Shown piece after piece: positions 8,387 through 55,941 of a stretch of DNA of 64,000 nucleotides. Position 1 is the first letter of the stretch; each line of letters starts with the position of its first letter. Source of the DNA: a virus (taxonomy: Duplodnaviria > Heunggongvirae > Uroviricota > Caudoviricetes); the IMG/VR virus record IMGVR_UViG_3300022871_000010. One strand, given 5' to 3'. The notes beneath the pieces were generated by a model. It made no database searches and was not told the DNA's origin. It was given only the letters and a program-made list of their open reading frames with translations. Both the position numbers and the translations under genes were made by a program.

Positions 8387-10687
8387 TTATACATCACCCT
8401 GTTCTTCCCTGATTTTCATAATTAATTGTTTTGCATCAGTCATGATTTGTTGCACTTGTTTTTTTGATATAGGAATGTCATACTGGTTCTTTACGTGAAG
8501 AGTAATTCTATTCATAGTCAGTGTCGTGTCATTAACCATAATATCTTGTAATGCAAGTAACAACAAAGACTTGTAAATATCTGTTGAAGAAACTTCACTA
8601 CGAACGACATCTTCATCATACACATTTCTTTCCCTAACCTTCAAGTATTTTGTGTACAACCAATTTGGAACTTTAGGAAATTTTATTATTTTCCAAAAAT
8701 TTGGATGTTTTTTTAGTTTCTTTTCAATCTCAGTTAATGAAGTGAACTCAGTATATGAGCCAACGTTTTTAAAATCTTTAAGTCTCCATGGGTCGTTACT
8801 TGGATTTTTATCTTTAACATAAATTGCGCCAAGACCTCTACCAAATAAATCTATCCAGTAATTTACGAAAGAATTATGAACCAATAGATTATTTGCAACA
8901 TAATTTTTGTTTTTGTTTACATTTAATATATCATAAACATCCACATTTGGTTCTTTATTTATTTGTATTATTGATTCAAACTTATTTGATATTGTAAAAA
9001 TTTTATGATTATGTGTTAATTCATGTAATTGTTTCCATCCATCATTTGTAAAAAAACTATGATTTTTTGTGGCCTTAATTTTATTATTTGTTGTAATAAT
9101 TTCAAAGACTATATCATTTTTTGTTTTTACACAAGCTTCAGCAAATTGATATTCATACTTTTTATTTTTTATATCATAGCTTAATACTTCAATGTTTGAT
9201 TTATTTTCTAAATGTTTTATTTTTTGTAAACCCTGTCTAGTATGTATTAAAGTGTCCCCATGTAAACATTCTAAATAATTTTTTTCTATCTTAACAATTT
9301 TTAATGGAAAACATAAAATAAATAATAAATGTTTTGTTCTAACTTCCGCTAACCGTTTTTTTAATTCTTTAGACTCTTTTTTTGCCCAATCCGCAGAACT
9401 ATTATGTACAACAAAATTATTAGCAATATAATTATTATTATCTTCAACATTAATTATATCATAAACATCTATTTTTTCTTTTTTTGTTATGCTTTTAATT
9501 TTTATAAATTTATTATTAAAACATACTAACATATTTTTATTAATATGTTGCAATTCTTTCCATCCATTATTTGTTAAAAATTTATGTTCTTTAGTGGCTC
9601 TTATAATGTTTTCATTTTCGATTTCTAATTCATATACATAATCTGTTTTTGTTTTAATTATTGTTTTGGCTTTTTTAAATTCTGTTTGTTTATTTTTTAT
9701 ATTATATGATAATACTTTAATATTTTTTTTATTTACTAAAGTGCTTATTTTTTTAGGACCTTCTAAGGTTTGAATAATTGTGTTTCCACAAATACACGCA
9801 AACCTTACCGCTTCATCTGCGATTATTGGTTCGAACGCATTTAATTTATTAATTTTATCCATAACGTCTTTATTGTTATAGGCTAAATGTCTATTGGGGT
9901 CAAATCTTATTCCAATTAATTTACACCATTCTCTAGCTAACATTATTGAGGCAGACGATTTTCCAGTATTTGAAACAACAAACCCGTTAGCTATAAAATT
10001 ATGATTATCTCTAACATTAACTACATCATAAACATTTTGTTTTCCTAAATGTTTTATTGATTTTATTATATTATTTATTATTTTTTTATTATTATCAACT
10101 GTCACAATTTTTTTAGTTTTATCATTTATTTTCAAATCTTTTAATTCTTTATATGTTCCGTCCATTAATAAAAACGGATGGTCTGCAGTGGCCTTTATAA
10201 TTTGACCAGTTATTAATTCTAATTCATATACATCATCATACTTAGCAAACTCTACACCGTCAGAATCTTTTATTTCTAATTTTTTAGTATCCTTATTAAA
10301 TGAATAAACTTTTATTGGACCTTTATTTATTAGTTCTTTTAATGGAACTCCAACCGGATATTTTGTTAAATCTCTAGGCATCATCAATAAAGAATCATCT
10401 GTCAAACATCCTTTCTCAGAAGTCATTAGTACCATACTATCGTAGTTGGCTAAATTTCTATAAAGTAAATGTTTTGCAAACATTCTAAATATGTTGAAAC
10501 CTCTGTTGTTTGGTTTTTCTCCTTCAACATATTTTTTACCTTCTTCATTGTGCATTTCTTGAATTATAAATAGAATATCATTTAACCCAAGCTTGACACT
10601 ACTTGGATTGTCTGTCTTAAAAGATTCTTTAATTATGTTTTCTACTAATCTCCTAGTACCAAAACCTAACTCTTTTGCGTCAGCCAT
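8387..10687 (-). CDS. AAA+/P-loop ATPase interrupted by three mini-inteins. The extein is about 355 aa and is Orc1/Cdc6-like or packaging-ATPase-like.
   Basis: The spliced extein reads SEKG|TGKSSASIML (Walker A), then about 50 aa later EPIIADEAVRFA (Walker B). Three inserts each start with Cys and end in (H/S)N followed by Ser or Thr. Confidence 0.7.
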   Translation of the reverse strand: MADAKELGFGTRRLVENIIKESFKTDNPSSVKLGLNDILFIIQEMHNEEGKKYVEGEKPNNRGFNIFRMFAKHLLYRNLANYDSMVLMTSEKGCLTDDSLLMMPRDLTKYPVGVPLKELINKGPIKVYSFNKDTKKLEIKDSDGVEFAKYDDVYELELITGQIIKATADHPFLLMDGTYKELKDLKINDKTKKIVTVDNNKKIINNIIKSIKHLGKQNVYDVVNVRDNHNFIANGFVVSNTGKSSASIMLAREWCKLIGIRFDPNRHLAYNNKDVMDKINKLNAFEPIIADEAVRFACICGNTIIQTLEGPKKISTLVNKKNIKVLSYNIKNKQTEFKKAKTIIKTKTDYVYELEIENENIIRATKEHKFLTNNGWKELQHINKNMLVCFNNKFIKIKSITKKEKIDVYDIINVEDNNNYIANNFVVHNSSADWAKKESKELKKRLAEVRTKHLLFILCFPLKIVKIEKNYLECLHGDTLIHTRQGLQKIKHLENKSNIEVLSYDIKNKKYEYQFAEACVKTKNDIVFEIITTNNKIKATKNHSFFTNDGWKQLHELTHNHKIFTISNKFESIIQINKEPNVDVYDILNVNKNKNYVANNLLVHNSFVNYWIDLFGRGLGAIYVKDKNPSNDPWRLKDFKNVGSYTEFTSLTEIEKKLKKHPNFWKIIKFPKVPNWLYTKYLKVRERNVYDEDVVRSEVSSTDIYKSLLLLALQDIMVNDTTLTMNRITLHVKNQYDIPISKKQVQQIMTDAKQLIMKIREEQGDV
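8873..9268 (-). mobile_element. Mini-intein 3 (aa 474-605, 132 aa).
   Basis: Starts CLHGDTLIHT. Ends KNYVANNLLVHN|S. It is paralogous to intein 2: both have EVLSY / KATK(E/N)H / VYDI(I/L)NV. Confidence 0.8.
9401..9796 (-). mobile_element. Mini-intein 2 (aa 298-429, 132 aa), inserted just after Walker B.
   Basis: Starts CICGNTIIQT. Ends NNYIANNFVVHN|S. Confidence 0.8.
9968..10408 (-). mobile_element. Mini-intein 1 (aa 94-240, 147 aa), inserted inside the P-loop between G and TGKS.
   Basis: Starts CLTDDSLLMM. Contains the block-B-like TADHPFLL. Ends DNHNFIANGFVVSN|T. Confidence 0.8.
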
Positions 10688-10694
10688 TTAAGGA

Positions 10695-11090
10695 TTATTT
10701 ATTTCCTGGTTTTAATTTTAATAACGCTGTTATTTCATTACTATATTTTGATAGCTCTGCTTGTATTGCATCATTGATTACGTTGGCTTTTGTTTTATCT
10801 GTTATTGCCGCTAGTGCTGATATCTTTTCTTTCATTCCAAGTCTTAAATGAAACCCATAAAATGTTTTTTCTTTAACTTGAACTACTGGTTCTTCAACTG
10901 CAGCCATTATTTTTTCAGCTACTTGTATTTTAATTGGTGGCTCAACTACTTCAAAATCAAAATTTGTTTCTGTTTCGGTAAGAGGTTCTTCGTCTTTATT
11001 TACTTGTTCTACAATAGATTCTTGTTCTAGCTTTAGTTCTTGCATTGGTGTTTCTATTTCTTCAATTTGGTTGTTTTCTTGTTCTGTCAT
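10695..11090 (-). CDS. Acidic protein with a C-terminal ribbon-helix-helix (CopG/ParG/Arc-like) DNA-binding domain.
   Basis: C-terminus KEKTFYGFHLRLGMKEKISALAAITDKTKANVINDAIQAEL fits the RHH beta-alpha-alpha pattern. The N-terminus is E/Q-rich. Confidence 0.45.
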   Translation of the reverse strand: MTEQENNQIEEIETPMQELKLEQESIVEQVNKDEEPLTETETNFDFEVVEPPIKIQVAEKIMAAVEEPVVQVKEKTFYGFHLRLGMKEKISALAAITDKTKANVINDAIQAELSKYSNEITALLKLKPGNK

Positions 11091-12393: not shown

Positions 12394-12462
12394 TTTAGTT
12401 TTAAGAAAAAAGGTTATACCACACGAATGCAGTATAACCCGGTGATAGGTGATAAGTATTGT

Positions 12463-12586
12463 TTTAAATGAACTGTTTGTAGTTTGTTTAAACCTGAAGT
12501 TTAAATGAACTGTTTGTAGTTTGTTTAAACCTGAAGTTTAAATGAACTGTTTGTAGTTTGTTTAAACCTGAAGTTTAAATGAACTC
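12463..12586. repeat. Perfect tandem direct repeat: a 37-bp unit (tttaaatgaactgtttgtagtttgtttaaacctgaag) in about 3.3 copies, in the upstream region of the helicase gene.
   Basis: Units begin at 12463, 12500, 12537 and 12574 and are identical. Confidence 0.9.
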
Positions 12587-12677
12587 TTTAATTTTTATTC
12601 TTACATACCATAGTTTACTTAATTCATCAATGTGGTCTACAGCTTTACTATTAACTAATATATCTCTAATTCTTGCT

Positions 12678-13238
12678 TCAATTTCTCCTACTTGAACTTT
12701 TAGTATTTTTTTGTTTATTTCTATTTTTATTCACCCTCTTTAGTTTTTGTTGTTGTGGTTGTGGTCTTGATATACCTAAAGCTCTTTCTAGTCTATCGTT
12801 ATATACTCCGCCTCTAGATTGATTATTGTTGTTATTGTTTTGATTGTTGTTGTTATTGTTTTGATTGTTATTTGAATTATTGTTTGATACTCCTAACATT
12901 CTATTAATTTTATCTGAAATACTATTCCCGCCATTTTGACCACCATTAGACATTCCACCAAAACTAAAGGCTTTAGCTAACTTTTCTAGTTTGTCGGTTT
13001 TGTCTTGACCTGTCATCTTCTTAATTTCTTGTTCTTTAATATGTTTTACCATTTCAGGTCTTAATTCTAATAATGCTTGTTCTCTTGCTTCCGTCATTAT
13101 CTTATTTTTGAATTCTTTTTCTTTACGTTTTGTTTCTAACCTATTTTTTATTTTTGTTATAAGTTTTGATATTAATCCAGGCTTCTTAACTTCAACCTTT
13201 TCTTCAATTCCATATCTTTCTAATTCTTCCATATTCAT
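12678..13238 (-). CDS. Hypothetical Lys-rich coiled-coil protein with a poly-Asn/Gln low-complexity tract (186 aa).
   Basis: ORF with NNNSNNNQNNNNNNQNNNNNNQ, encoded by imperfect nucleotide repeats at about 12790-12880. Confidence 0.5.
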   Translation of the reverse strand: MNMEELERYGIEEKVEVKKPGLISKLITKIKNRLETKRKEKEFKNKIMTEAREQALLELRPEMVKHIKEQEIKKMTGQDKTDKLEKLAKAFSFGGMSNGGQNGGNSISDKINRMLGVSNNNSNNNQNNNNNNQNNNNNNQSRGGVYNDRLERALGISRPQPQQQKLKRVNKNRNKQKNTKSSSRRN

Positions 13239-13454
13239 TTTATTTCACCTATCATAATTGTTTATATTAATATAATTAATAATGATATATATAAATGTTT
13301 TGTTTTACCATTATCCCTTATCATATTCAAAGTCACCTGACACTGGTTACAGTGACACTCATAATATATTCTTAAAGTCTATATATATAAAATTGTTATA
13401 TATATACACTCTCTGAAGGCTTTTAGAAATGCACAATATTTATTAGAAAAAACA

Positions 13455-13997
13455 TTTGTCAGTGACTGTATATATTTATTACTTTAATATACAATTATAT
13501 TATTATATCATATATACAGTCACTGCGTCAGTATACACATGTGTATACTCGAACGCGTTTTAGGCTTTTTTGAACTGTAAATGGCTGTACTTTTTTATAC
13601 CTAAAAGCCATACTAAAACTTCTTATAATAACAACACAAGGTCTGTATGTATATATATGGTGTATATGGGTTATACTTCTATCTCTATATGTATTATATT
13701 AACTACTCAGAGAGTATATATATTTTTTAATTTTATATTTTCATTATTTATGATATTTTCTTTGGCTTTTTCTTGGCTTTTTTTGGCTAAAATGGCTTTT
13801 TTTGGCTTTCCTTTATAAAAGGATTGGCTATATTGTGGCTTTTTTATAATATTTTTTAGCCATTATGGCTAAAATTTTAGCCAAAATCACTGAAAACCTG
13901 AAAAATAATTAGTGACTGTATATACAGTCACTATTTGTAAATTCAATAAATCACAATAAATTATGTTAAAAGTTCAGTGACTATATATATAGTCACT
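13455..13997. promoter_or_regulatory. Palindrome cluster in the divergent strand-switch intergenic region. It is a candidate operator array and/or replication origin.
   Basis: Inverted repeat CAGTGACTGTATATA (13460-13474) with TATATACAGTCACTG (13511-13525). 20-bp perfect palindrome AGTATACACATGTGTATACT (13530-13549). 22-bp perfect palindromes AGTGACTGTATATACAGTCACT (13911-13932) and AGTGACTATATATATAGTCACT (13976-13997). Confidence 0.6.
13762..13886. repeat. Array of TTGGCT direct repeats ending in the palindromes TAGCCATTATGGCTA and GGCTAAAATTTTAGCC. This is a candidate protein-binding iteron field.
   Basis: At least six copies of TTGGCTTTTT-like units, then a perfect palindrome at 13857-13871 and a 16-bp one at 13867-13882. 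Confidence 0.55.
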
Positions 13998-14152
13998 ATC
14001 TTGTCACATTTTTTCAGTGACACTTTTCCAATATTATGATAGGGTTGTGCAAAATAAAAACATTTATATATATCAAAGAAAATAATAATATTCATATAGA
14101 AAAAAAGGAATTAATTTTTAACAATTCTTTTTTGTAAATAGGTGATATATTT

Positions 14153-20501: not shown

Positions 20502-23500
20502 ATGTTAGATATAAAAAAATTAATCAAAAATAAAACCAACAGGGTAAACTTTGGTGGTCCTCTTTCTAAAAATTTAAACAAATTTAATCTAAAGGCTTTC
20601 GGTGGAAAGAAAGATTTAGATTTTGATGGAATACTTAACAAGTTTGATTGTAAACCAAAAAACACTATGAGACAAGATTATATTCCTTTCAAGCTGGCTA
20701 GTGCTTCTAAACTACCCCAAGTGCCTAGACATAAACAACATTTTCAAACAAGGTTTGAAAAGAACAAGGCACCTAAAAGAAAAATTTCTAAAACAAAATA
20801 TACACCCCCTGTTTCATTAATTAAAGAATTTTCTATGAATCCAACAGTTAAACGTGGGTCTTTAAATATTGGGCGTTGTGGGGATGCAGCTTCATGCATT
20901 GTTACAGACGCAGTAAATAGTGGAGTTCCAATGTCGGACATTGAAGTGTTTGGTGTAAGAGCACCTAATCTTAATAAAGGCGAAGATATTTATTCTAATC
21001 ATATGATAACTAAAGTTCAAGATAAATATTATGACCCAACCAAAACACAGTTCGGATATAAAGATAATGAACTAATAACTGATTCTATAGATTCAAGATA
21101 TAATACTCCAGTAATACAACCGACAAGTGCATATGTTAAAAAAGGGGCTTCATTAAAAAAACAAGATGAATGGGCTTATATGACAGGAGCACAAAAAGAT
21201 ATAGAACGGGCTGTATATATAGATACTGATGGGGATAGAGTCCCGGATGATTATGATTGTCAAATTAATAATACCATGCGCCAAGATTTCACACCATTCA
21301 AATGGGATGTAAATAAAGCTTCAAAACTTTCTGCAGCTAAAAGATTTGGTGGAAAGAACTTGGCAAAATTACAAAAGATAGGTTCCGGTAGAGATAGAAA
21401 TGTTTATGCTATAGATAAAGATAAAGTATTAAAGGTTGCTAAAAATCCTGGTGGGCTAACTCAAAATACTTCTGAATCAGATTTAGATTGGTTAACAGGC
21501 CAAATCAAACATTATGAAACTGGATTGGATTATGTAGTTATGGAACGAGCACAACCTCCAGGTAAAGCTACGGCTAAAATGATGAGACATTTGAAGAAAG
21601 CAAGAAGCGATACTAATATGATGCAGTCAGTTCATTCACAAAGAGCAGACTTTTTTAATTCTCCACACTTCGAAAAATCAGGTTTAGACGCTTCAGATTT
21701 TTCAAGCCATGATGTAAACCCAATGGAATTTACGGCAAGAAAACAGTGGGGAGAAAAAGATGGTCAGCCAGTACTTGTTGATGGAGGAGCATTAATGGGT
21801 GGTGATGATTTATCAAATCATAGAATTAAAGATTTTAAACAAAACGCTTGGCAACTTAATGAATGGCAAGATACTCAAAATCAACGTAAAGAATTTAAAC
21901 ATAAAGGTAATGTAAAAACCCACTATCCTAAAAGTAATCCAGTAGAAAACTTATCAAACTTCCCATTAAACAATGGTGCTTCTTTAGCTAAACAAAATGA
22001 ATGGAAAGAAATGTCTGGGGAACAAAGAGATGCTCAAAGACAAACCAGCCATGACACAGATGGAGATAGAGTCCCGGATGAATATGATTGTCAACCAGAA
22101 AATACAATGCATCAAGATACTAATATATATTTAAGTAAACGTAAAGATAAGACTAAACATTCTATGTATACATATAGTCCTACAAAAAATCAGATAAAAA
22201 AAAATACTAAAAACATATTTATTGGGTCAGAATATAAGAATGTTGATTTTAACAAACAACAAAATATAAATCAGTTGTCAGCAATATTAGGGCATGAAGA
22301 ACAACACAGTATTTTGGATGTAGAACATAATAGTGATACTTCCGCAAAGTTAGATAATATAGCCATTAAAACACTTTTTGTTGATTATGACGATGAAACA
22401 TTATTGTTAAACACATCTGTGCAACCAAAAGAAATTGTTGGTTATGCAAATAAAAATAAACATTGCGATGATTCAAAAAATGCTTTTAAATTTATCTTTA
22501 ATAAAGGTGCGTCATTACAAAAACAAAACGAGTGGAAAGAAATGTCTGGAGAACAACGAAACATTGTTAGACAATTCAAAGAAGACATAGACGGGGATAG
22601 AGTCCCGGATGATTATGATTGTCAACCAGAAAATACAATGCATCAAGATTTCAGTATATCCCCAGACCAGTATGATTTTGATAAAAAAGAATTTAAGTTT
22701 GATAATAAACGAAAAGTAGTTATGATGCCGGTTGAAGAATTATATCATAAACGTGGTAAATATAATTTAGGTGGAACAACCACGATGCAGGATGATTATA
22801 CCAAACGTAAAACGGTGGGCAAGAATATCACAAAAGCCGCCGGGAGACCTGCAACATATGATGAAGTAACAAAACATATGATTAAAAATCGTAATGAAGA
22901 TTTAAAACAACAAGGATATAAACCTTCACCACACAAATTAAATAAAGATGATAGTGTAACAATTAAGTATCGAAGGTCTCCACAAAAATATAAGTATGAC
23001 ATGGGAATAATAATGAGCCCAACAAATACTGATTCTGAACGGAGTGGAAGTCTTGGGGATTTAAAAATAGCCCAAGGAGCAAGTCGTAAAGAAGCAGGAC
23101 AGGCAGAAGTAATGTTTCACGCTAACAGTATGAGAGATGCAGTGATGAAAGATTCTGCAGAAGTCCCAATGATAACAGTTCATGGTTCAGATTTTAACCC
23201 AGGAGCAACTATAGGGGAAGGGAGACATAGAATCATTGCCGCTAAAGCCGCAGGATTAACAGAGGTCCCAGTGTTTATTGAACCAAATAATAGATTACCT
23301 GAAGGGGCTTTAGATAAGTATAGAGAATTATCTACTGATGAAATACAACAATTTTCTTCAGACCATAGAGTTCCAGGAAAAACCGTTAACACTAATAAAC
23401 CTAAAAACATAGAATATAAAGAATATGATAAGAGTTCTAAATTTAAACCAACTAAAGATTTTGATGTAGGCTATGATGAGTATGTAGATAAACGAACCCC

Positions 23501-23570
23501 TGAAGAAAAAGAAGAAGAAGACGAACTTAGATTAGCAAATTTAACCTATGAAATTTTAGGACACTATTAA
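20502..23570 (+). CDS. Giant multidomain protein (1022 aa). It carries at least four thrombospondin-type-3-like Ca-binding repeats, a eukaryotic-like protein-kinase-like domain, and a C-terminal ParB/Srx-like nuclease domain.
   Basis: Four copies of DTDGDRVPDDYDCQPENTM(H/R)QD. Kinase-like G-loop IGSGRDRNVYAI, VLKVAK lysine, YVVMER hinge, catalytic loop SSHDVNPMEF, VDGGALMG in place of DFG. ParB-like HGSDFNPGATIGEGRHRIIAAKAAGLTEVPVFIEP. Confidence 0.55.
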   Translation: MLDIKKLIKNKTNRVNFGGPLSKNLNKFNLKAFGGKKDLDFDGILNKFDCKPKNTMRQDYIPFKLASASKLPQVPRHKQHFQTRFEKNKAPKRKISKTKYTPPVSLIKEFSMNPTVKRGSLNIGRCGDAASCIVTDAVNSGVPMSDIEVFGVRAPNLNKGEDIYSNHMITKVQDKYYDPTKTQFGYKDNELITDSIDSRYNTPVIQPTSAYVKKGASLKKQDEWAYMTGAQKDIERAVYIDTDGDRVPDDYDCQINNTMRQDFTPFKWDVNKASKLSAAKRFGGKNLAKLQKIGSGRDRNVYAIDKDKVLKVAKNPGGLTQNTSESDLDWLTGQIKHYETGLDYVVMERAQPPGKATAKMMRHLKKARSDTNMMQSVHSQRADFFNSPHFEKSGLDASDFSSHDVNPMEFTARKQWGEKDGQPVLVDGGALMGGDDLSNHRIKDFKQNAWQLNEWQDTQNQRKEFKHKGNVKTHYPKSNPVENLSNFPLNNGASLAKQNEWKEMSGEQRDAQRQTSHDTDGDRVPDEYDCQPENTMHQDTNIYLSKRKDKTKHSMYTYSPTKNQIKKNTKNIFIGSEYKNVDFNKQQNINQLSAILGHEEQHSILDVEHNSDTSAKLDNIAIKTLFVDYDDETLLLNTSVQPKEIVGYANKNKHCDDSKNAFKFIFNKGASLQKQNEWKEMSGEQRNIVRQFKEDIDGDRVPDDYDCQPENTMHQDFSISPDQYDFDKKEFKFDNKRKVVMMPVEELYHKRGKYNLGGTTTMQDDYTKRKTVGKNITKAAGRPATYDEVTKHMIKNRNEDLKQQGYKPSPHKLNKDDSVTIKYRRSPQKYKYDMGIIMSPTNTDSERSGSLGDLKIAQGASRKEAGQAEVMFHANSMRDAVMKDSAEVPMITVHGSDFNPGATIGEGRHRIIAAKAAGLTEVPVFIEPNNRLPEGALDKYRELSTDEIQQFSSDHRVPGKTVNTNKPKNIEYKEYDKSSKFKPTKDFDVGYDEYVDKRTPEEKEEEDELRLANLTYEILGHY

Positions 23571-23586
23571 TTAATGAGGAATAAAA

Positions 23587-24456
23587 ATGTTTGATATAAA
23601 TAAAATGTTAGGAAAAAAGAAAAATAAGATGCCATCTTTTGGTAGTATGAATATGTCTAATACTTTTGGAAAGAATCCTTTATCAAAAATGATTGGCGGA
23701 ATAACTAAGAATCCATTAAAAACTTTTGGGGCTTCACCTAAACTACAGAATCAATGGAAAAATTTCTCGGTTAAAACCAAAAATAATTTGCGAAAACAAT
23801 TCAAAGATACTGATGGTGATAGAATTCCAAACAAATGGGATTGCCAACCTAAAAACCCTATGAGACAAGATACTGTATATCATGGCACCACTCCTTTAGC
23901 CGCTATGAGAATTAAAAAAACTGGTATATTAACCAGTAACGAATTAAAAAATAAAGGTAATCCTGAATTTGTTCAGAGTGATAAAACTCGTCCTGATAAA
24001 ACTTATTTTTTTAAAGATAAAGCAAGAGCTGAAAGTTGGGCGAATGTGGTTACGGCAGGGTCTATGTTTCCAGACGCAAATCCTACAGTGGTGGTTGCAG
24101 ATGTTCCAGGGGATGAATTATTTCCAGATGGAGAAATGGAAACCGGTGGAGCGTTTTATAAAGAAGGTTCTGTTCCAGCTTCACAAATAAAAAAATCTTA
24201 TGAAATTAAACCAAAATATTCAGCAAAAGATATTGCGGCAGCGGATGCGATAATGAATCCTAAACAAACCCAAACATTAGCAGTTTCTTCTGATGGAAGA
24301 AAACAAAAAACTATGAATGGAAGTTTAATGAAAAAAGTTATAAAAGACTCTAATGGGAATATGATAATAAATGAAAAAACTGGAAGCCCATTAACTACTC
24401 CAATATTTGAAGGAGACCCTTACACTGTTAATAAATATGGAAGAAAAATATATTAG
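23587..24456 (+). CDS. Protein with one TSP3-like repeat plus a possible H-Y-E ADP-ribosyltransferase-like (PARP/Tpt1-like) core (289 aa).
   Basis: KDTDGDRIPNKWDCQPKNPMRQD. Then VYHGTTPLAAMRIKKTGIL, TYFFKDKARAESWA and GEMETG / AFYKEG, which resemble the HG(S/T)...Y(F)...E triad. Confidence 0.3.
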   Translation: MFDINKMLGKKKNKMPSFGSMNMSNTFGKNPLSKMIGGITKNPLKTFGASPKLQNQWKNFSVKTKNNLRKQFKDTDGDRIPNKWDCQPKNPMRQDTVYHGTTPLAAMRIKKTGILTSNELKNKGNPEFVQSDKTRPDKTYFFKDKARAESWANVVTAGSMFPDANPTVVVADVPGDELFPDGEMETGGAFYKEGSVPASQIKKSYEIKPKYSAKDIAAADAIMNPKQTQTLAVSSDGRKQKTMNGSLMKKVIKDSNGNMIINEKTGSPLTTPIFEGDPYTVNKYGRKIY

Positions 24457-27509: not shown

Positions 27510-27598
27510 TGGGGCATAGCTCAGTATGGTAGAGCAGGTTAATGGGATAATTTAATTATTCAATCTATCAGTCGGGGGTTCGAATCCCTCTGCCCTTA
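27510..27598 (+). tRNA. tRNA-like gene with about 14-20 extra nucleotides in the anticodon arm (possible archaeal intron) and a mismatched 1:72 pair. The anticodon could not be assigned.
   Basis: Acceptor and D-arm (T)GGGGCA-TA-GCTC-AGTATGGTA-GAGC. T-arm GGGGG-TTCGAAT-CCCTC. 3' acceptor TGCCCTT-A. The middle region AGGTT...AATCT can pair around a 21-nt insert. Confidence 0.5.
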
Positions 27599-39220: not shown

Positions 39221-42200
39221 ATGATTAGAGAAAAAGAATATGTTTGTCCTCCAAATTTTGAGGATGTATTAATATACGATATAGAGACAGCGGCATTCGG
39301 GGATTCGCCTAATGCACAAAAAAATGATTTAAGAGTATTTGGGTATTATTCATTTAATACAGATACTCTAGGAACATTACCGTATTATGATAAAGAAGGT
39401 ATTCAGAAACTTATTGATGAACATAAATTCTTAGTAGGTTATAATAATATAGAATATGATAATCCAATATTAGAGAGAGAAGGAATTTCTTTAGAGTATA
39501 AACGAATGGTTGATTTGATGAAAATATTATTAAATAGGGCCGGCGGAATGAAAACAAATAAAGGAATGGTTGGGCAAGAACTATTAAGATATTCGTTAGA
39601 CGCAGTGACAAGATTCTTTGACTTAGTAAATGATGAAACAGCAAAAGGAGATTTAGATTATTCAATATTGAAAAAAACTAAATGGACTAAAGAAGAAAAA
39701 GATGATATAATAAAATATACTAAAAGAGATATTGAAATAACTAAAAAGCTTTATTTATTTATGGAAAAATATTTTGAAGGATTTAAAGACTTCGTTCCAG
39801 AAAAAGATATTAAAGGAAAATATTATTTAACTGACAGTATGGCAAAAGTTGTATACAAAGCAATATGTCACGCCCTTAAATGGGAACCAGAATATGATAA
39901 AGACTTCACTCCAGAACTTGCGAAAGATAGAATTGACGGCGGATATGTATCATACCCGGCTGGAGAAAAGTTTGTAGGAAATATTTATTGCCTGGATTAT
40001 AACAGCCTTTATCCATCAATTATGATGATGTGTAACCTTTACGGAAGAAACAAGACTACATTCAAAGGATGGAATGGTGATAACTATTTTGATGTAAAAG
40101 GGTTTTATGATAGTGAAAACCAAAGTGAAACTTCAGTACTATTACAAAACTTATATTTATTAAGAATGATGTATAAACGAAAACTATTATTAGAAGACGG
40201 ACACATCATTAAAATGATAGACAAAAAGAATGGGAAAAGTGTTTATGATTATATAGGACAAAAATATCATCACGTAAGTAAACACGCAGGTGGGCAGATT
40301 TGTTCCTCTTTAGAATTATTAACCAAAGCGCAAGCAGACCATTTCTATAAAATAACTTTAGAAGGAATGGACCCAAGAGAGTACACTATTAAAATAATTA
40401 TTAATTGCTTTGATGAGACAGGACAAGTAATGACCCCCGAAGGAATTAAGTATATCAAAGATTGCAAAGTCGGTGATATGGTTTATTCTATTAATCCAAA
40501 AAATTCATTATTAGAAGTAAAACCAATAATCGATGTAACTAAAAGAGAATACACTGGGAGTTTTCACAATTACAGAAGCAACGGATATAATTTTAGAATA
40601 ACCCCGAATCATAAGTTATTATTAAATAACAAACATCAAAAACAAGGCGACAGTGTATTTTTAAAATCTGTAAGTTTAAGAGACCAAAGAATTATTCCAT
40701 CCGCCAAACCTAATTTTCCGGAACAACCAGAATTTATTTATTTAGACGATGTATACCATGAAAATTTTATGGTAGCTATAAGACCTAAAGACAATGAACA
40801 ATTGTTTTTCACAGATAATAATTTAGATATTAATGATTTCAGGTACAGTACAGTATTGAAGGCATACATAATTAAATACAGTGAAATAAAAAAAACTTTA
40901 AGAACATTAGAAAATTGTGATATAAAATGTTATCACGAAGACACAATCATTAGAGATTGCAATGCAATGGATTATAAAATGGATAGAAAAACTTTTATGG
41001 AATTGATTGGATGGTTAATATTCAGAGGAAATATTCATAAAGTTAAAACATACACTACAATAAATCCTAGAACACTAAAAGTAAAAAAAGTTGCGGAAAG
41101 ACAGTTCATGACAATTAAAGGAACACATAGTTGGTCTGAAACAATAACAGTTAAAGCAATATTTGATTTGTGTAAATCTCTGGGGTTGCATCCAGTAAAA
41201 CAAGGAAAAATAATATTATGTCATAATCAGATTTTAGTAAATATGATGTTACCATATAAAGTTGACGACACCCTAATGAATTTAGAAGGGTTCCTAAAAT
41301 ATTTAGATGCTGAAACCGCGCACTTAATAATTAAAACGATGATAAAATTTTCTCAAGAAAATTCATCAACAGACATATGTGTTTGGGATGAAGGAGCAAA
41401 AATAGCAGTATGCAAACTTATAACTTTAGCTGGAGGAACTTTTGTTTTAACACCAAAAAAGAATTTTACTAGAATAAGAACATCTTTTGTTCCAACGCTA
41501 ATAGGACCAAAAAATAAAAAATCATATCAACACAGTGGACCAATATATAACATTCATGTAAAAGATAACCATACTATACTTGCGGGGAGCTATGGGAAAT
41601 TTAATTGGATAGGGCAAACATCCTACGGGATTTTAGATAAGAAGTACTACAAATTAGTATATGATAAAGTTGCCGCAGGAGATTGTACCAGATTAGCCAG
41701 ACAATGGGTTAAGTTAGCAAGAAAAAGGTTTAAGGCCGAAGGATACAAAATCATATATACAGATAGTGTAACTAAAGATATGAAAGTAACTTTACAGAAT
41801 GACGAACAAATAACGGTTGAAGAATACTGGAATAAGTATGCGGCAAATAAAGAGTTAGTTGCAGAAACAAAATTTAGACATGAAGACAAAGAATATGGTG
41901 ATTGTATCAAACCAATACTAACATGCAACGATTTATACAAGAACGAGTTTCAAACACCAGTACAAATAATAAGGCACAAGAAAGCTGATAGAATTTATGA
42001 ATTTCATACAGAATCAGGTAAAGTATTAAAATGTACAGCAGACCATTCAATAATAACATTAGACTTAGACACCATGCAATATAAGACAATAACACCAGAA
42101 GAAGCAAAAGAAGTAGGGTTTTTATTAATTGACGTTAGAACGCACGGAATGGCTCCTGATGATATGACTTTAGAGGAAGCAGATTTCACAATGGATGCAA

Positions 42201-43021
42201 TAGTTAAAACAGAAGAATATTTCGAGAATGATTATGTTTATGACTTTTCAATAGATGATTACGAAAAGTTCTATGCCAACGATGTATTAGTACATAATAC
42301 TGATTCATGGTATTTTGAAGATGTGTACGACGACCCACAAAGATTCCTGGAATTAAAGGACAAATTAATTGAGGAAATAAAAACACACACACCATTCCCA
42401 TCGGCAACATTTGATGCAGGAGTAGATGATGAAATTAAAGCAATGTTCTTTTTTCAAGCAAGAAAAGGTAAAGCTGCTAAAGAAGAAGATGAAAGCGAAT
42501 TAGATGATGATGACCGAATGTATAAACCTTTAGGCCTAATGAAAAAGAATTACATTTATGTAACCCAGAAAGACAAATTAGTATTAAAGAATTTAGGGAT
42601 AAAGAAAAAAAGTATCAGTGCATTATCTAAAAAGATATTTTGGGAATACATGGTTCCAATAATAAAGAAAGACTTTGTAGTAAAGTTTTCTAAAGTAAAG
42701 ATAGATAACTTAATGATTGAATATTTATCTGAAAATATAGAGTTAGCCTATATGAGAAAGAAAGTTAAATCATATGGGGCGTATAAGAAATCAAACACAA
42801 TAATTCAAGCACAGATAGCTAAGAAGTATGGCCCAGGAATACATTTTTTAATACCAAACAAAAGACATATTGGTGTTGGAAAAGGAGTAACTTATTGTTC
42901 AGACAAAGAATTCAAAGAGACAGGAATGAGCATAGCAGATATAGATTTAGAATATTATCGTAAAGAATTAGCTTATTTTGCAGTAGATAACAGACAACAA
43001 AAGTTGTTTGATATGTTTTAG
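39221..43021 (+). CDS. polB: Family-B DNA polymerase with a 3'-5' exonuclease domain, interrupted by two inteins. The extein is about 694 aa, or about 740 aa if intein 2 takes the shorter Cys-start boundary.
   Basis: Exo I IYDIETAA, Exo II YNNIEYDNPIL, Exo III YTKRDIEIT. Motif A LDYNSLYPSI. Motif B KIIIN-[intein]-SYGKF. Motif C GYKIIYTD-[intein]-TDSWYFE. KxY motif KKNYIYV. Confidence 0.85.
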   Translation: MIREKEYVCPPNFEDVLIYDIETAAFGDSPNAQKNDLRVFGYYSFNTDTLGTLPYYDKEGIQKLIDEHKFLVGYNNIEYDNPILEREGISLEYKRMVDLMKILLNRAGGMKTNKGMVGQELLRYSLDAVTRFFDLVNDETAKGDLDYSILKKTKWTKEEKDDIIKYTKRDIEITKKLYLFMEKYFEGFKDFVPEKDIKGKYYLTDSMAKVVYKAICHALKWEPEYDKDFTPELAKDRIDGGYVSYPAGEKFVGNIYCLDYNSLYPSIMMMCNLYGRNKTTFKGWNGDNYFDVKGFYDSENQSETSVLLQNLYLLRMMYKRKLLLEDGHIIKMIDKKNGKSVYDYIGQKYHHVSKHAGGQICSSLELLTKAQADHFYKITLEGMDPREYTIKIIINCFDETGQVMTPEGIKYIKDCKVGDMVYSINPKNSLLEVKPIIDVTKREYTGSFHNYRSNGYNFRITPNHKLLLNNKHQKQGDSVFLKSVSLRDQRIIPSAKPNFPEQPEFIYLDDVYHENFMVAIRPKDNEQLFFTDNNLDINDFRYSTVLKAYIIKYSEIKKTLRTLENCDIKCYHEDTIIRDCNAMDYKMDRKTFMELIGWLIFRGNIHKVKTYTTINPRTLKVKKVAERQFMTIKGTHSWSETITVKAIFDLCKSLGLHPVKQGKIILCHNQILVNMMLPYKVDDTLMNLEGFLKYLDAETAHLIIKTMIKFSQENSSTDICVWDEGAKIAVCKLITLAGGTFVLTPKKNFTRIRTSFVPTLIGPKNKKSYQHSGPIYNIHVKDNHTILAGSYGKFNWIGQTSYGILDKKYYKLVYDKVAAGDCTRLARQWVKLARKRFKAEGYKIIYTDSVTKDMKVTLQNDEQITVEEYWNKYAANKELVAETKFRHEDKEYGDCIKPILTCNDLYKNEFQTPVQIIRHKKADRIYEFHTESGKVLKCTADHSIITLDLDTMQYKTITPEEAKEVGFLLIDVRTHGMAPDDMTLEEADFTMDAIVKTEEYFENDYVYDFSIDDYEKFYANDVLVHNTDSWYFEDVYDDPQRFLELKDKLIEEIKTHTPFPSATFDAGVDDEIKAMFFFQARKGKAAKEEDESELDDDDRMYKPLGLMKKNYIYVTQKDKLVLKNLGIKKKSISALSKKIFWEYMVPIIKKDFVVKFSKVKIDNLMIEYLSENIELAYMRKKVKSYGAYKKSNTIIQAQIAKKYGPGIHFLIPNKRHIGVGKGVTYCSDKEFKETGMSIADIDLEYYRKELAYFAVDNRQQKLFDMF
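40406..41587 (+). mobile_element. PolB intein 1 (about aa 396-789), carrying a LAGLIDADG-type endonuclease, at the motif-B (pol-b) site. The C-terminal junction is non-canonical.
   Basis: Starts CFDETGQVMTPEGIKYIKDCKVGDMVYSI. LAGLIDADG-like LIGWLIFRGN and LITLAGGTF. Block F-like IYNIHVKDNHTILAG. No His-Asn immediately before the SYGKF that restores motif B. Confidence 0.6.
41765..42298 (+). mobile_element. PolB mini-intein 2 at the motif-C (pol-c) site. The preferred boundary is a Ser-1 start (aa 849-1026), giving the spliced motif YTDTDS. The alternative is a Cys start at 41903 after EYGD.
   Basis: Block A SVTKDMKVTLQNDEQITVEEY. Block B VLKCTADHSIITLD. C-terminus ANDVLVHN|TDS. Confidence 0.65.
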
Positions 43022-49309: not shown

Positions 49310-49483
49310 ATGTCAATAAGAGTTATTGCGGGAGTATTAATGATTCTAATGACCATGCTCATGACGTGGCGTGAAGGTATGATTAAATTTATAGCAATAG
49401 GTATAGGCATTGTAATATGTCTATATATTATCAGAAAGATTGCGGACCTATATTGGTATGGCAAAGACAAGAACGAGTGGTAA
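49310..49483 (+). CDS. Small membrane protein (57 aa). Not in the ORF track.
   Basis: MSIRVIAGVLMILMTMLMTW...IAIGIGIVICLYII. Confidence 0.4.
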   Translation: MSIRVIAGVLMILMTMLMTWREGMIKFIAIGIGIVICLYIIRKIADLYWYGKDKNEW

Positions 49484-49494
49484 TATTTCTAAAT

Positions 49495-50320
49495 TAATTA
49501 AATTATAGCACTGACTTAATTGTCGCACTCTTTTATAAAGTAGTCAGGGCTATATATAAATGAACTGACTTAATTGTTTCACATCTATATTCTCTAAACT
49601 ATATGTTGTAAACTATATGTTGTAAACTATATGTTCTAACCTATATGTTGTAACCTATATGTTCTAAACTATATGTTCTAAACTATATGTTGTAACCTAT
49701 ATGTTGTAAACTATATGTTCTAAACTATATGTTCTAAACTATATGTTCTAAACTATACTTCATTCTTGTTATTTACTTGACTGACAAAAATGTCTCACTC
49801 CTTTTATAAAGAAACACAGTTCATATATAAAGGACTGACTTAATTGTCTCACATCTATATTCTCTAACCTATATGTTGTAACCTATATGTTGTAACCTAT
49901 ATGTTGTAACCTATATGTTGTAAACTATATGTTGTAACCTATATGTTGTAGACTATATGTTTCCAACAAGTTACTTTTATCGGGACTGACAAAAATGTCT
50001 CACTCCTTTATAAAAGAAGTTACTATATATATAAATGGACTGACTTTTTTGTCTCACATCTATATTCTCTAACCTATAGGTTGTAACCTATATGTTGTAA
50101 CCTATATGTTGTAACCTATATGTTGTAACCTATATGTTGTAACCTATATGTTGTAACCTATATGTTGTAGACTATATGTTTCCAACAAGTTACTTTTATC
50201 GGGACTGACAAAAATGTCTCACTCCTTTATAAAAGAAGTTACTATATATATAAATGGACTGACTTTTTTGTCTCACATCTATATTCTCTAACCTATAGGT
50301 TGCAGACTATACCTTTTATA
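49495..50320. repeat. Higher-order repeat locus. Four roughly 110-bp leaders, each with two TATA-like boxes and duplicated GACTGAC...GTCTCAC elements, are each followed by an array of 14-bp direct repeats (CTATATGTTGTAAC or CTATATGTTCTAAA).
   Basis: Arrays span about 49597-49757 (11 or more units), 49867-49958 (about 6.5), 50071-50178 (about 7.5) and 50291-50312 (truncated). The leaders at 49981-50070 and 50181-50290 are identical. There are no spacers, so this is not a CRISPR. Confidence 0.9.
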
Positions 50321-51975
50321 AAGGATACTATAAAATGTTGTATAAAATTGATAAAATATCAAAAAATGAGATTTTTGGATTTACAATTTTGAAAGGCTAA
50401 AAAATTTTTTAGCTTCGTGAAAAAACCAATTCGTTTCTCGGTAAAACTCATATGAAACTTTTTTCTCTATATACAAATACGCATAATATTTTATTTGCTT
50501 AAAGTAACATTATGTTTAATTGTTTAACTAATCTAACACGCAGACACCCCCAATTAGGGTAGTGTTTTTGGAAGAATCGGACCATCTAGAATACTTAGCA
50601 TCTTAAACATACTATCCCTTTATAAAGGAAATATATATTTCTGAAAAAAAATTATATATTTATTCTGAGAATTATATATTTCTTTTATATACTTTATAAA
50701 CAAATCTAAATTAATTAACAACAGGTATATACATTTCAGTAATTCATATACATCTATATGTTTTTTATTAATTCATATACATTTGGGGTTAACAGAACAT
50801 GCCAGATGATACAGGTATTCTCTGATGGTATCTTTTAGATACTAAGTATACAAAAGATACTATGGTTTTATTTTTATAATTATATATTTCTTTTATATCC
50901 CAAAAAGTATGCAGTGCATTACATACATTGTATACATTGTATGCATTGTATACATGTAACACTTAGGAACTTAAACGCGGGTAATAAATGATACAGACCG
51001 GCACAATATATAACAGATGTGTTGCGTGTAACACATGGGGTCTAAAAGATACTAGGGATATTTCTGGTAACACACTGGACTTCAATTTTGAATTTTGAAA
51101 TTTGAATATATAAAAGAATAAAAATTAAACAGGTAATAAAAATATAGGTCATGCCACATTGCGCACAGTTCAACCACCCGATGTGTTACCACCCAAATTT
51201 CAAATCAGGTAACACGGAACAGCATATTTGAAATTTTATATATGATATTTGGATAATTTCAATTTTTAAGAATTTAAAGCGTAATATTTGAAATTTTTAA
51301 ACTAGTTGAAAATCCCTATATTTCAAAATTCAAATATAGCTTTAAATTCAAATTTCAAAATTCAAATATAGCTTTAAATTAAATATTTCAAATATTGTTT
51401 ATATATAGGCGTAAATTTCAAATATTCAATTTTTAAACAGGATAATTTTAAATATTCAATTAGAACATATTTAAATTTTAAAATTAACGTGGTTTATTTG
51501 AATTTTAAGAACTTATTTGAATTAGTATATAGATATATTTGAAATTATTTTAAAGTTCTTTAAAACGCTTAATATTTGAAATTCTTTTATAAAGGACTTT
51601 TGGTTTTTAAAAAATTGAATTTTCTTTATATACTAATTGAATACAACCTGTTTATTAGTAGAATTTAAGGGGGTAATATTTAGGGGGTATATAGGTTTTA
51701 AAAAAAATACATTATTTCATTTAAAAGGAAATAGGGTACAGCCTCTCTACTATCCGAATTAAAGCATATTAACTTTTTTACTATTTATAAAGGTTTCTAT
51801 CTGTTTAAAAGGTTATTTTTTTACTTTATAAATAAAATTTTTAGTCTTTATAAAGGGTTTCGGTTTATATGTTTAATAGAGGTTTCAGGGTATTTACTAC
51901 TAAAAAATTACAAAGAAAGTTTATATACATTTTTTACTTTCTTACATCATAAGGTAAATAAAAACCTTAAAAAAA
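50321..51975. promoter_or_regulatory. 1.65-kb AT-rich noncoding region dense in ATTTGAAAT/ATTTCAAAT motifs and short direct repeats. Candidate replication origin or unwinding region.
   Basis: No ORF of 60 aa or more. More than 15 copies of the 9-mer in both orientations at 51060-51620. A roughly 31-bp tandem duplication at 51330-51390. CATTGTATAC x3 at 50920-50955. GTGTTAC/GTAACAC operator half-sites at about 51020-51216. Confidence 0.5.
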
Positions 51976-52221: not shown

Positions 52222-52368
52222 TTTTTTTTATTGTTTAGGTGTGTTACTTTAATAGATACTACAAAGTAACACGCAAGAGCCATTTTACAAAACCGAAAGG
52301 TTTATATATAAGCTATGCTTTTAGTAATTATAAGGAATTAAACCTTAAAAAAATTAATAGAGGAAAAA
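52222..52368 (+). promoter_or_regulatory. Promoter cassette copy 1: oligo-T terminator, 10-bp perfect inverted repeat GTGTTACTTT-N12-AAAGTAACAC (52241-52272), BRE/TATA AAAGGTTTATATATA (about 52296-52312), conserved leader TTATAAGGAATTAAACCTTAA, then SD GAGG.
   Basis: Almost identical cassettes at 53606, 55798 and 58705. Confidence 0.75.
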
Positions 52369-53605: not shown

Positions 53606-53752
53606 TTTTTTTTATTCTTTACGTGTTACTTTAATAGATACTACAAAGTAACACATAAGAACTATTTTACAAAAACGAAAGGTTTATATATAAGCTATAC
53701 TTTTAGTAATTATAAGGAATTAAATCTTAAATAAATAAATACAGGTGGAAAA
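53606..53752 (+). promoter_or_regulatory. Promoter cassette copy 2. Inverted repeat at 53623-53654; TATA at about 53678-53692.
   Basis: Same architecture as copy 1. Confidence 0.75.
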
Positions 53753-55797: not shown

Positions 55798-55941
55798 TTT
55801 TATTCTTTATGTGTTACTTTAATAGATACTACAAAGTAACACACAAGAACTATTTTACAAAAACGAAAGGTTTATATATAAGCTATGCTTTACTATATTT
55901 ATAAGGAATTAAACCTTAACAAAAATTTAATGAGGAAAAAA
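55798..55941 (+). promoter_or_regulatory. Promoter cassette copy 3. Inverted repeat at 55811-55842; TATA at about 55866-55880.
   Basis: Same architecture as copy 1. Confidence 0.75.

Follow-up and report, generated by a model that had tools for sequence, protein, structure and literature searches.

A strain-variable higher-order repeat in a conserved noncoding region of a virus-like genome: a candidate protein-binding block

The 64,000-nucleotide (nt) stretch of viral DNA analyzed here (IMG/VR record IMGVR_UViG_3300022871_000010; hereafter the window, in whose coordinates all positions are given unless another sequence is named) contains, at 49510-50311, four 73-nt leaders, each of which heads a head-to-tail run of 14-bp repeats (14-mers). 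We find that this locus is a real, unusual and fast-evolving higher-order repeat within a conserved viral control region, and our analyses establish its anatomy, its uniqueness within the window, its syntenic position, its restriction to one lineage and its variation among strains. We tentatively propose that the locus may be a cis-acting protein-binding block, in which operator-like boxes surround weak, opposed TATA elements and the 14-mer arrays would serve as platforms for oligomerization. That protein binds here, which protein would do so and what regulatory consequence would follow we infer from the pattern of the sequence.

In this proposal each leader would be a regulatory cassette in which two 19-bp boxes with a GAC-(A/T)6-GTC core bracket two TATA-like elements. 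The boxes, which would lie on the same face of the DNA because their separation of 54 bp is about five helical turns, are predicted operators for a dimeric DNA-binding protein, and the 14-mers are predicted head-to-tail sites at which the same or a second small protein would oligomerize. The nucleoprotein array so formed would act to silence or insulate the weak promoters of the cassettes, which point in opposite directions, and the outcome would be control of transcription, and possibly of DNA handling, at the boundary of a module of small open reading frames (ORFs). The block would enlarge by slippage of the 14-mers together with unequal recombination of a 219-bp array-plus-leader unit.

Results

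Anatomy of the repeat locus

All leaders have the same order of elements (Table 1): box A, 3 nt, TTTATAAA, 13 nt, TATATAAA, 3 nt, box A' and then AT, which leads into the 14-mers. Box A is 19 nt long and reads ACTGAC-N5-TGTNNCAC, an element that the original prediction had given as a duplicated GACTGAC-N6-GTCTCAC, and box A' lies exactly 54 nt downstream of it in four of four leaders. The locus as it had been described, at 49495-50320 with four leaders and a duplicated box, is indeed what the sequence contains. The same is true of the claim that two leaders are 100% identical as a result of recent expansion: leaders 3 and 4 have identical sequences, and the 219-bp duplication, at 99% identity, includes an exact run of 159 nt at an offset of 219. 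The arms of the box are constant, and its 6-nt A/T spacer is variable (GAC-AAAAAT-GTC, GAC-TTAATT-GTC, GAC-TTTTTT-GTC). Judged from the sequence, constant arms, a variable spacer and a fixed 54-bp spacing form the pattern expected of protein sites and not of RNA structure. A hairpin between box A and box A' was considered and rejected; the two are complementary in units 3 and 4 only, and a conserved hairpin is therefore unlikely.

Counted in register, the four arrays hold 31 full 14-mers (12 + 8 + 9 + 2), and Tandem Repeats Finder delimits 14-bp arrays at 49585-49757 (12.4 copies, 92% matches), 49865-49961 (6.9 copies, 95%) and 50070-50180 (7.9 copies, 96%). The expectation of 7 to 11 or more near-perfect units behind each leader is borne out for arrays of 12, 8 and 9 units, but not for leader 4, which heads only two units and a CTATA stub. 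Nor are the repeats perfect, as had also been claimed: the units are 92-96% identical, and array 1 mixes four variants. Every array begins with one fixed variant, CTATATTCTCTAA(C/A), and ends in a partial unit, and all arrays have a single orientation and register relative to box A'. Within the 14-mer, which is T-rich (6 T and 4 A of 14), CTATA is invariant, the core CTATATGTT is nearly so, and variation falls mostly in the 5-nt linker [G/C]TAA[C/A]. The 9-nt core is unchanged in 27 of the 31 units. In one register the 14-mer forms a 12-bp quasi-palindrome, AACCTATATGTT, with 10 of 12 positions palindromic.

The box and the 14-mer both depart strongly from chance and are limited to the locus. 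In a scan of the window the box had eight exact matches, all inside the locus, and the 14-mer with up to two mismatches had 24, again all inside the locus, where 1.1 were expected; none of 100 shuffles reached 24. Neither sequence occurs in about 35 kb more of the same genome, scanned in overlapping contigs. Exact and degenerate dimers of the 14-mer had no match in IMG/VR, the 2.7-kb region had no blastn match in isolate phage genomes, and the sole match in a scan of the sequence collection for the two-box pattern was an unrelated coding repeat in L015 (L numbers denote the other sequences compared). A coding role for the arrays can be rejected, since the period is not divisible by three and TAA or TAG occurs within three units in every frame of both strands.

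A conserved noncoding region surrounds the repeats

We recovered the regions syntenic to the locus through homologues of the family B DNA polymerase (PolB) and through alignment of the 57-amino-acid (aa) membrane protein encoded directly upstream, homologues of which in L025, L030, L031, L054 and L055 have in common the C-terminal motif IAD(L/I)(Y/F)W(Y/W)G(K/R)D. Relatives at about 50% PolB identity have a noncoding region at the same syntenic place and with the same order of elements. In the window this order runs from the cassettes to CTTTATAAAG palindromes, then to GTAACAC boxes and then to clusters of TTTCAAAT and ATTTGAAA. The 2.5-kb control region contains 11 occurrences of TTTATAAA, where 1.05 are expected, and is enriched in the palindrome CTTTATAAAG. 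The 2.5-kb surroundings of the repeats would thus appear to be a cis-acting region that is conserved in these relatives. In particular, the clusters of TTTCAAAT and ATTTGAAA are a family-wide cis-element, possibly for unwinding or for the binding of an initiator.

In L025, a 109.6-kb contig with the same two upstream genes, the syntenic region lies in mid-contig. There the position of the cassettes (L025 18110-18560) is occupied by three identical copies of a canonical promoter (AAACAAAACATTTATATATTAGTTA), which precede a small-RNA candidate consisting of a hairpin and a T5 run, tRNA-Gln, tRNA-Pro and a leaderless ORF with its ATG 28 nt downstream of the TATA box; further on come ACTTATAA(A/T)TTATAAGT palindromes, then GTGTTAC/GTAACAC boxes and then TTTCAAAT repeats. 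L030 carries three tandem double-TATA units. GTAAC-type boxes and TTTCAAAT repeats are found in L054, L031, L033 and L028/L029, together with small unrelated tandem repeats of their own, and the arrays peculiar to relatives include an 11-bp unit present four times in L054, a 20-bp unit present three times in L025 and a 110-bp unit present once or twice in L028/L029. The control regions of L025 and L055 also contain the minus-strand arm of the box, GTGAGAC, and the string CTCACATCTAT, although the statistics of this recurrence are weak. Beyond the 95-100% identity level, the two-box cassette and the 14-mer array are absent from all relatives examined, and both are restricted to the lineage of the window, that is, to identical or near-identical contigs and to the strain L027.

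As a separate observation, a perfect AT-rich palindrome, GGCTAAAAAATTTTTTAGCT, lies at 50395-50416, 85 nt past the last cassette. T5/T6 runs flank it on both strands, and the repeat block may end here in a bidirectional terminator.

Variation among strains and assemblies

Separate assemblies from two or more sources (several JGI metagenomes, ENA assemblies) contain the locus, and L027, a strain of 95.7% identity with a record of its own (FUWD013217116), carries it too. An assembly artefact, an outcome that had been named as one that would undo the prediction, therefore does not account for the existence of the locus, although its copy numbers stay uncertain. A comparison of unit copy number across assemblies, which had likewise been suggested, indicated that the repeats break assemblies and that counts vary. 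Array 1 has 12 units in the window, in L002-L005 and in L003, 7 in L006 and L009, and 15 in L027, where the order of variants differs and a leader of type 3 directly follows. The number of cassettes is 3 or 4, with one 219-bp copy absent from L002, L005, L006 and L009. Because the 159-nt exact repeat exceeds typical short-read length, short reads cannot resolve 3 from 4 or more cassettes, and part of the variation from assembly to assembly, the 7-unit form included, may be assembly collapse. The differences between the arrays of L027 and those of the window are, however, true strain differences. The block is thus lineage-specific and changes on the timescale of strains. All four cassettes, and the 95.7% strain as well, retain the same junctions and the same fixed first unit.

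These features raise the question of whether the arrays have any specific role. With 14-bp tandem units whose copy number differs between close strains, the locus qualifies as a minisatellite (a variable-number tandem repeat), subject to the caveat of assembly collapse. On a neutral account, an AT-rich quasi-palindrome beside a duplicated cassette would have expanded by slippage, and the block would then have been duplicated by unequal recombination. The arrays are lineage-restricted while relatives retain the rest of the region, and unit number, variant order and cassette number all vary among close strains, as this account would predict; the partial units that flank the arrays, the very recent origin implied by the near-identical duplication and the small unrelated arrays that relatives carry in the same region point the same way. 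What speaks against this account is that the 9-nt core is held constant as the linker varies, that the first unit and the junctions are fixed even in the 95.7% strain, and that orientation and register relative to box A' are uniform. On balance we regard a purely neutral, hypermutable minisatellite as rather unlikely.

Promoters, operators and possible transcription of the arrays

To assess the leaders as promoters, we compared them with the promoters of genes in the same genome. Convincing gene promoters consist of TTTATATA preceded by AAA-NN, lie 37-62 nt before start codons and are always co-oriented with the gene (AAANNTTTATATA, a motif that matches the box of methanogen promoters). They fall into two classes, AAAACAAAACATTTATATA (class 1) and AAAAACGAAAGGTTTATATATAAGC (class 2). 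A weight matrix trained on 11 real promoters also matches sites outside the training set upstream of other genes (47007, 37917 and 26297). The fit of the genome's promoters to AAANNTTTATATA, together with GGTGAT ribosome-binding sites, lends plausibility to the earlier suggestion of archaeal-type transcription signals.

The leaders depart from this grammar. They contain TATA-like boxes but lack the AAA-NN element, and their weight-matrix scores are 7.4-9.6, on the minus strand only and thus pointing away from the downstream array, as against 12-33 for real promoters. In every leader each of the two TATA-like boxes is exactly 25 nt from the far box. With this spacing, an archaeal-type start directed rightward by TTTATAAA would coincide with the first base of box A', and one directed leftward by the minus-strand TTTATATA with the final base of box A. 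Within about 10-15 nt after these predicted starts, however, the boxes themselves contain a T6 run on the plus strand (units 3 and 4) and a T5 run on the minus strand (units 2-4), and runs of this type are archaeal termination signals. The missing AAA-NN, the low scores and the T5/T6 runs together count against simple strong promoters that feed the arrays. The idea of promoter-like leaders is therefore partly supported, in that TATA-like boxes exist; promoters feeding the arrays are possible and are not the best-supported reading. If the leaders are promoters, they are probably a separate class that depends on a further factor and whose direction is ambiguous.

Transcription of the arrays into repeat RNAs would nonetheless be compatible with such a class. 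The TATA-like boxes would then be non-canonical, perhaps activator-dependent promoters, rightward and leftward from the starts just given, and the arrays would be transcribed, possibly from both sides, into (CUAUAUGUUGUAAC)n RNAs that form long imperfect hairpins or double-stranded RNA and act as a decoy or sponge. The constant 25-nt spacing suits this idea, as does the finding that the arrays are free of T5 runs on both strands. So does the family context, in that the promoter copies of L025 with their small-RNA candidate and tRNAs, and the three double-TATA units at the syntenic site of L030, make the cassette position a cluster of small transcripts in the family. On each strand the arrays also fold far better than shuffled sequences (z = -4.3 and -3.8). 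Long imperfect hairpins on either strand follow from the quasi-palindromic unit, however, and any tandem quasi-palindrome folds well, so these scores are no evidence of selected structure. Rfam returned only tRNAs at the gathering score, and with relaxed thresholds the locus gave only a hairpin-driven miRNA artefact. Given these points, and the absent AAA-NN, low minus-strand scores and T5/T6 runs, we consider transcribed repeat RNAs unlikely. A more specific version, in which crossed, opposed non-canonical promoters start at the operator boxes and convergent transcription of each array from the cassettes on its two sides yields sense and antisense repeat RNAs or long hairpins that decoy a host factor, seems to us improbable. 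If true, such a sponge against a host RNA- or DNA-binding factor would make the locus the first of its kind among viral noncoding repeat RNAs.

A scan for intrinsic terminators found none, and sites in a scan for sigma-70 promoters were no more frequent than in shuffles. The minus-strand sequence TTTACA-17-TATAGT of the AAAC variant was treated as a chance match; the majority variant lacks it.

Elsewhere in the genome we observed a conserved operator-promoter module in which the inverted repeat GTGTTACTTT-N12-AAAGTAACAC precedes a TTTATATA promoter by 35 nt (in the window) or 11 nt (in L054, at about 50% PolB identity). The modules, at three genes of the window and four of L054, look like a regulon of the small-ORF module.

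Weighing a protein-binding role

Several lines of evidence argue for the locus as a protein-binding block. The box and the 14-mer are non-random and confined to it, and the constancy of the 9-nt core beside a variable linker is as would be expected of a recognition core. The repeats sit in what appears to be a conserved cis-acting region, and the inverted repeats just described suggest that palindromic operators beside TATA boxes are in use in this virus family. The variation in unit and cassette number fits an array prone to slippage and recombination.

Other findings weigh against this proposal. A Pfam scan of about 60 ORFs detected no ParA, ParM, ParB, Rep or integrase, either near the locus or elsewhere. 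Because relatives lack the arrays, the function for which the region is conserved cannot depend on them, and they could be neutral. Classical iterons are longer and fewer than the contiguous 14-bp sites, and the common CTAAA variant breaks the symmetry of the 14-mer palindrome with no compensatory change.

Two binders encoded in the window had been put forward. A ParB-like domain protein was not confirmed, as no such domain was found in the same Pfam scan. The protein at 10695-11090, named as a ribbon-helix-helix (RHH) protein, does carry a faint hint of this fold, but its gene is 39 kb distant and no link with the locus emerged. It has a match to PSK_trans_fac (Rv0623-like) at E=0.065, and its C-terminal 45 residues resemble a strand-helix-helix; a structure model has a mean predicted local distance difference test (pLDDT) of 59.6, which is low confidence, with two C-terminal helices at pLDDT 74-89. 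Only three close homologues were found, one of which is labelled "predicted DNA-binding protein".

Replication origin and genome end as alternatives

An iteron-type origin had also been envisaged. In such an origin, or in a transcription-primed one, an initiator on the boxes or 14-mers would melt the AT-rich core or the downstream TTTCAAAT region. Direct repeats here do adjoin a repeat region that is very rich in AT (24% GC), has motif clusters in inverted orientation and is conserved among relatives, and the replication gene module ends at the locus. Against this, the 14-mers and boxes are not conserved in relatives, contiguous 14-bp runs of 8-12 units are unlike classical iterons, and there is no adjacent initiator gene: the neighbours are the 57-aa membrane protein and small ORFs without a Pfam match, and a D5-like helicase lies 33 kb away. 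Cumulative GC skew rises smoothly through 49-52 kb and has its minimum at about 13 kb, which is weak evidence given that viral skew also tracks transcription. We judge an origin at this locus to be quite improbable. The divergent region at 12.4-14.15 kb would be a better origin candidate. It contains a perfect 37-nt tandem repeat in 3.4 copies (12463-12589), GGCTTTTT repeats (13756-13810), one CCTTTATAAAAGG and long palindromes of the form CAGTGACTGTATATA...TATATACAGTCACTG (13459-13527, 13911-13934 and 13975-13998).

Another possibility is that the noncoding block marks the ends of a linear genome with terminal repeats, or a packaging region, and that early promoters there, along with the short-repeat arrays, lead into genes for host takeover. 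Short repeat arrays beside promoters A1-A3 are known from the left end of phage T7, and downstream of the locus there are more than 30 kb of small same-strand ORFs without known function. Several contigs end in or near the locus. These ends are scattered over differing positions, however, and so fit repeat-induced breaks; long contigs read through, L025 has the region in the middle of its contig, and no terminase was identified with which a link to packaging could be drawn. We therefore consider a genome end or packaging region very unlikely.

Genome context and probable host

The genome is at least 88 kb long; identical proteins are found on contigs of up to 87.6 kb, and overlapping contigs extend the window, whose GC content is 25-33%, on both sides. 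The repeat block forms the upstream edge of the control region. A plus-strand replication module lies to the left of this region, and the small plus-strand ORFs to its right are lower in GC. Window proteins include a PolB with inteins, a gp44/RFC-type clamp loader, a D5-like ATPase and two superfamily 2 (SF2) helicases, one of them fused to a PD-(D/E)XK nuclease. SPFH, NYN and SprT domains were also found, along with a weak glutaredoxin match in precomputed Pfam hits of the contig gene calls. There are two tRNA genes, and most ORFs could be placed in no family.

Since neither a capsid gene nor a terminase gene was identified, the label of virus stays a deduction, which draws on metagenomic relatives with conserved gene order, on absence among isolate phages and on one IMG/VR relative. 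Relatives of the clamp loader at 45-50% identity number in the thousands and lie on metagenomic contigs of up to 183 kb with conserved gene order. Among isolate phages there was nothing similar beyond about 31-34% clamp-loader identity, and the N-terminal extein of PolB had no tblastn match there. Among cellular proteins the clamp loader matches archaeal RFC small subunits at 24-37% identity; its only close match in metagenome-assembled genomes is a 7.6-kb contig binned as Thermotogaceae, probably wrongly. Because promoters fit AAANNTTTATATA, many ribosome-binding sites are GGTGAT and archaeal RFC proteins are the nearest cellular homologues of the clamp loader, an archaeal host appears likely.

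Additional observations concern the coding regions. The PolB gene (39221-43021) encodes 1266 aa with two intein/Hint insertions, and the polymerases of relatives have 845-1065 aa and differ in intein content; a 766-aa protein without known family (8387-10687) also bears an intein. Just left of window position 1, at 15761-17366 of L021, which is one contig of this genome, an IS200/IS605-type pair (Y1 transposase and OrfB/TnpB) lies beyond a 1408-aa gene, followed by a 767-aa gene and then the gene of a 2568-aa Laminin_G_3 protein. An N-terminal peptide motif of about 25-30 aa (45-70% identical) is common to 1022-aa and 289-aa proteins (20502-24456) and to several small ORFs of a relative (L016 800-2260), which suggests a repeated module or a paralogous family. 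Finally, a tRNA-like gene at 27510-27598 (89-91 nt; 39.7 bits against the Rfam tRNA model) has about 20 nt extra after the anticodon arm and was assigned no anticodon by ARAGORN; it could be an intron-bearing or degenerate tRNA.

Table 1. Positions of the repeat locus, of promoters and operators and of conserved elements (window coordinates unless another sequence is named)
Feature	Position	Strand	Description
Leader 1	49510..49584	+	Box A 49510-49528, TTTATAAA 49532-49539, TATATAAA 49553-49560, box A' 49564-49582, then AT
Array 1	49585..49757	+	12 full 14-mers and CTATA stub; mixed GTAAC, GTAAA, CTAAA and CTAAC variants
Leader 2	49780..49854	+	Box A 49780-49798, TTTATAAA 49803-49810, TATATAAA 49824-49831, box A' 49834-49852
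Array 2	49855..49966	+	8 units, including fixed first variant and degenerate last unit
Leader 3	49985..50059	+	Box A 49985-50003, TTTATAAA 50007-50014, TATATAAA 50028-50035, box A' 50039-50057; same as leader 4
Array 3	50060..50185	+	9 units
Leader 4	50204..50278	+	Box A 50204-50222, TTTATAAA 50226-50233, TATATAAA 50247-50254, box A' 50258-50276
Array 4 remnant	50279..50311	+	2 units and CTATA stub; abuts palindrome CTTTTATAAAGGA (50313-50325)
Higher-order tandem duplication (array and leader)	49865..50302	+	219 bp, 2.0 copies, 99% identical (Tandem Repeats Finder)
ORF-free control region including the locus	49484..51975	.	2.5 kb, 25% GC; replication module left, small-ORF module right
57-aa membrane-protein gene	49310..49483	+	Directly upstream; ends 26 nt before box A of leader 1; anchor for syntenic searches
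GTAACAC/GTGTTAC box cluster	50956..51215	.	Family-conserved motif; also in L025 (19992-20248) and L054
AT-rich TTTCAAAT/ATTTGAAA cluster, both orientations	51080..51600	.	Same syntenic place in all relatives examined
TTTCAAAT/ATTTGAAA clusters in relatives	L025 20290-20600; L031 4600-4730; L033 3245-3275; L054 11680-11900		Family-wide
Promoters	14063, 30954, 34210, 47007, 37917, 26297, 51920, 52301, 53683, 55871, 58716	+	AAA-NN-TTTATATA
Promoters	13295, 6365, 331	-	AAA-NN-TTTATATA
GTGTTACTTT-N12-AAAGTAACAC modules, three window genes	52241-52308, 53623-53690, 55811-55878		Inverted repeat and promoter
GTGTTACTTT-N12-AAAGTAACAC modules, four L054 genes	L054 12320-12370, 12767-12817, 14376-14425, 15022-15071		Inverted repeat and promoter
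Better origin candidate	12400-14150	divergent	Strand switch and cumulative GC-skew minimum, next to D5-like ATPase gene

Discussion

If the arrays bind protein or are transcribed, the locus would be a compact, tractable example of early-gene control in a large, essentially unannotated and probably archaeal virus; if they are neutral, it is an ordinary minisatellite. Since the repeat block varies on the timescale of strains, it could mark virus populations for tracking. The promoter and operator grammar and the conserved noncoding region may prove more useful than the arrays themselves, as handles for host assignment and for the study of regulation.

Comparison with known repeat systems helps to place the locus. 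CRISPR arrays have repeats of about 23-50 bp and unique spacers of similar length. The locus resembles them in having a leader-like sequence followed by repeats, but its units are 14 bp long and abut with zero spacing, and the window has no cas genes; the earlier conclusion that this is not a CRISPR array is sound. Classical iterons are 17-22 bp long and occur in groups of 3-7. Like the origins of lambda (lambda ori), of P1 and F plasmids and of phage T4 (oriE), the locus has direct, partly quasi-palindromic repeats near an AT-rich region and promoters. It differs in its shorter, abutting units, its many more copies, the lack of an adjacent initiator gene, its lack of conservation and a skew minimum, or skew switch, that lies elsewhere, so that neither unit size nor grouping nor position is that of an iteron origin.

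The repeats had also been called a hallmark of Borg-like archaeal elements. Borg repeats are perfect, A-enriched and spread genome-wide, in ORFs as well as between genes (PMC9879509). The likeness extends to an intergenic, head-to-tail arrangement with partial flanking units, fast evolution, a unit number that varies within populations and a length not divisible by three (PMC9879509). Unlike Borg repeats, however, those of the window are imperfect (92-96% identity) and T-rich, lie at one locus with cassette structure beside a virus-like replication module, and are among only two or three high-identity repeat loci in 64 kb, and the Borg-like assignment does not hold.

Two further groups of systems come nearer. 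SV40, BK and JC viruses carry promoter-enhancer repeats next to the origin, and oriP of Epstein-Barr virus (EBV) contains a family of repeats. With these the locus shares duplication of a regulatory block in a conserved noncoding region, strain-variable copy numbers and quasi-palindromic sites; the hosts of those viruses are eukaryotic, however, the unit sequences and binding proteins are unrelated, and any function of the present locus is putative. In the partition systems, parC of plasmid R1 has two sets of five 11-bp iterons that flank the parMR promoter, and pSM19035 has heptad arrays bound by omega. Here, too, there are contiguous short repeats in runs of about 7-12 at promoter-like cores, with several arrays per replicon and 8-12 units on both sides of the TATA cassettes, as in a type Ib or type II partition centromere. 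What differs is that no par operon, with genes for a ParA or ParM NTPase and a small RHH adaptor, adjoins the locus (the neighbours had no matches in the Pfam scan, and the RHH-like candidate is weak and distant), that the unit is 14 bp long, that the arrays are interleaved with a two-box cassette and that the replicon is virus-like and not a plasmid. Although the locus belongs to neither group, the arrays of R1 parC and of omega, together with the rearranging control regions of eukaryotic viruses, would seem to offer its closest working analogies.

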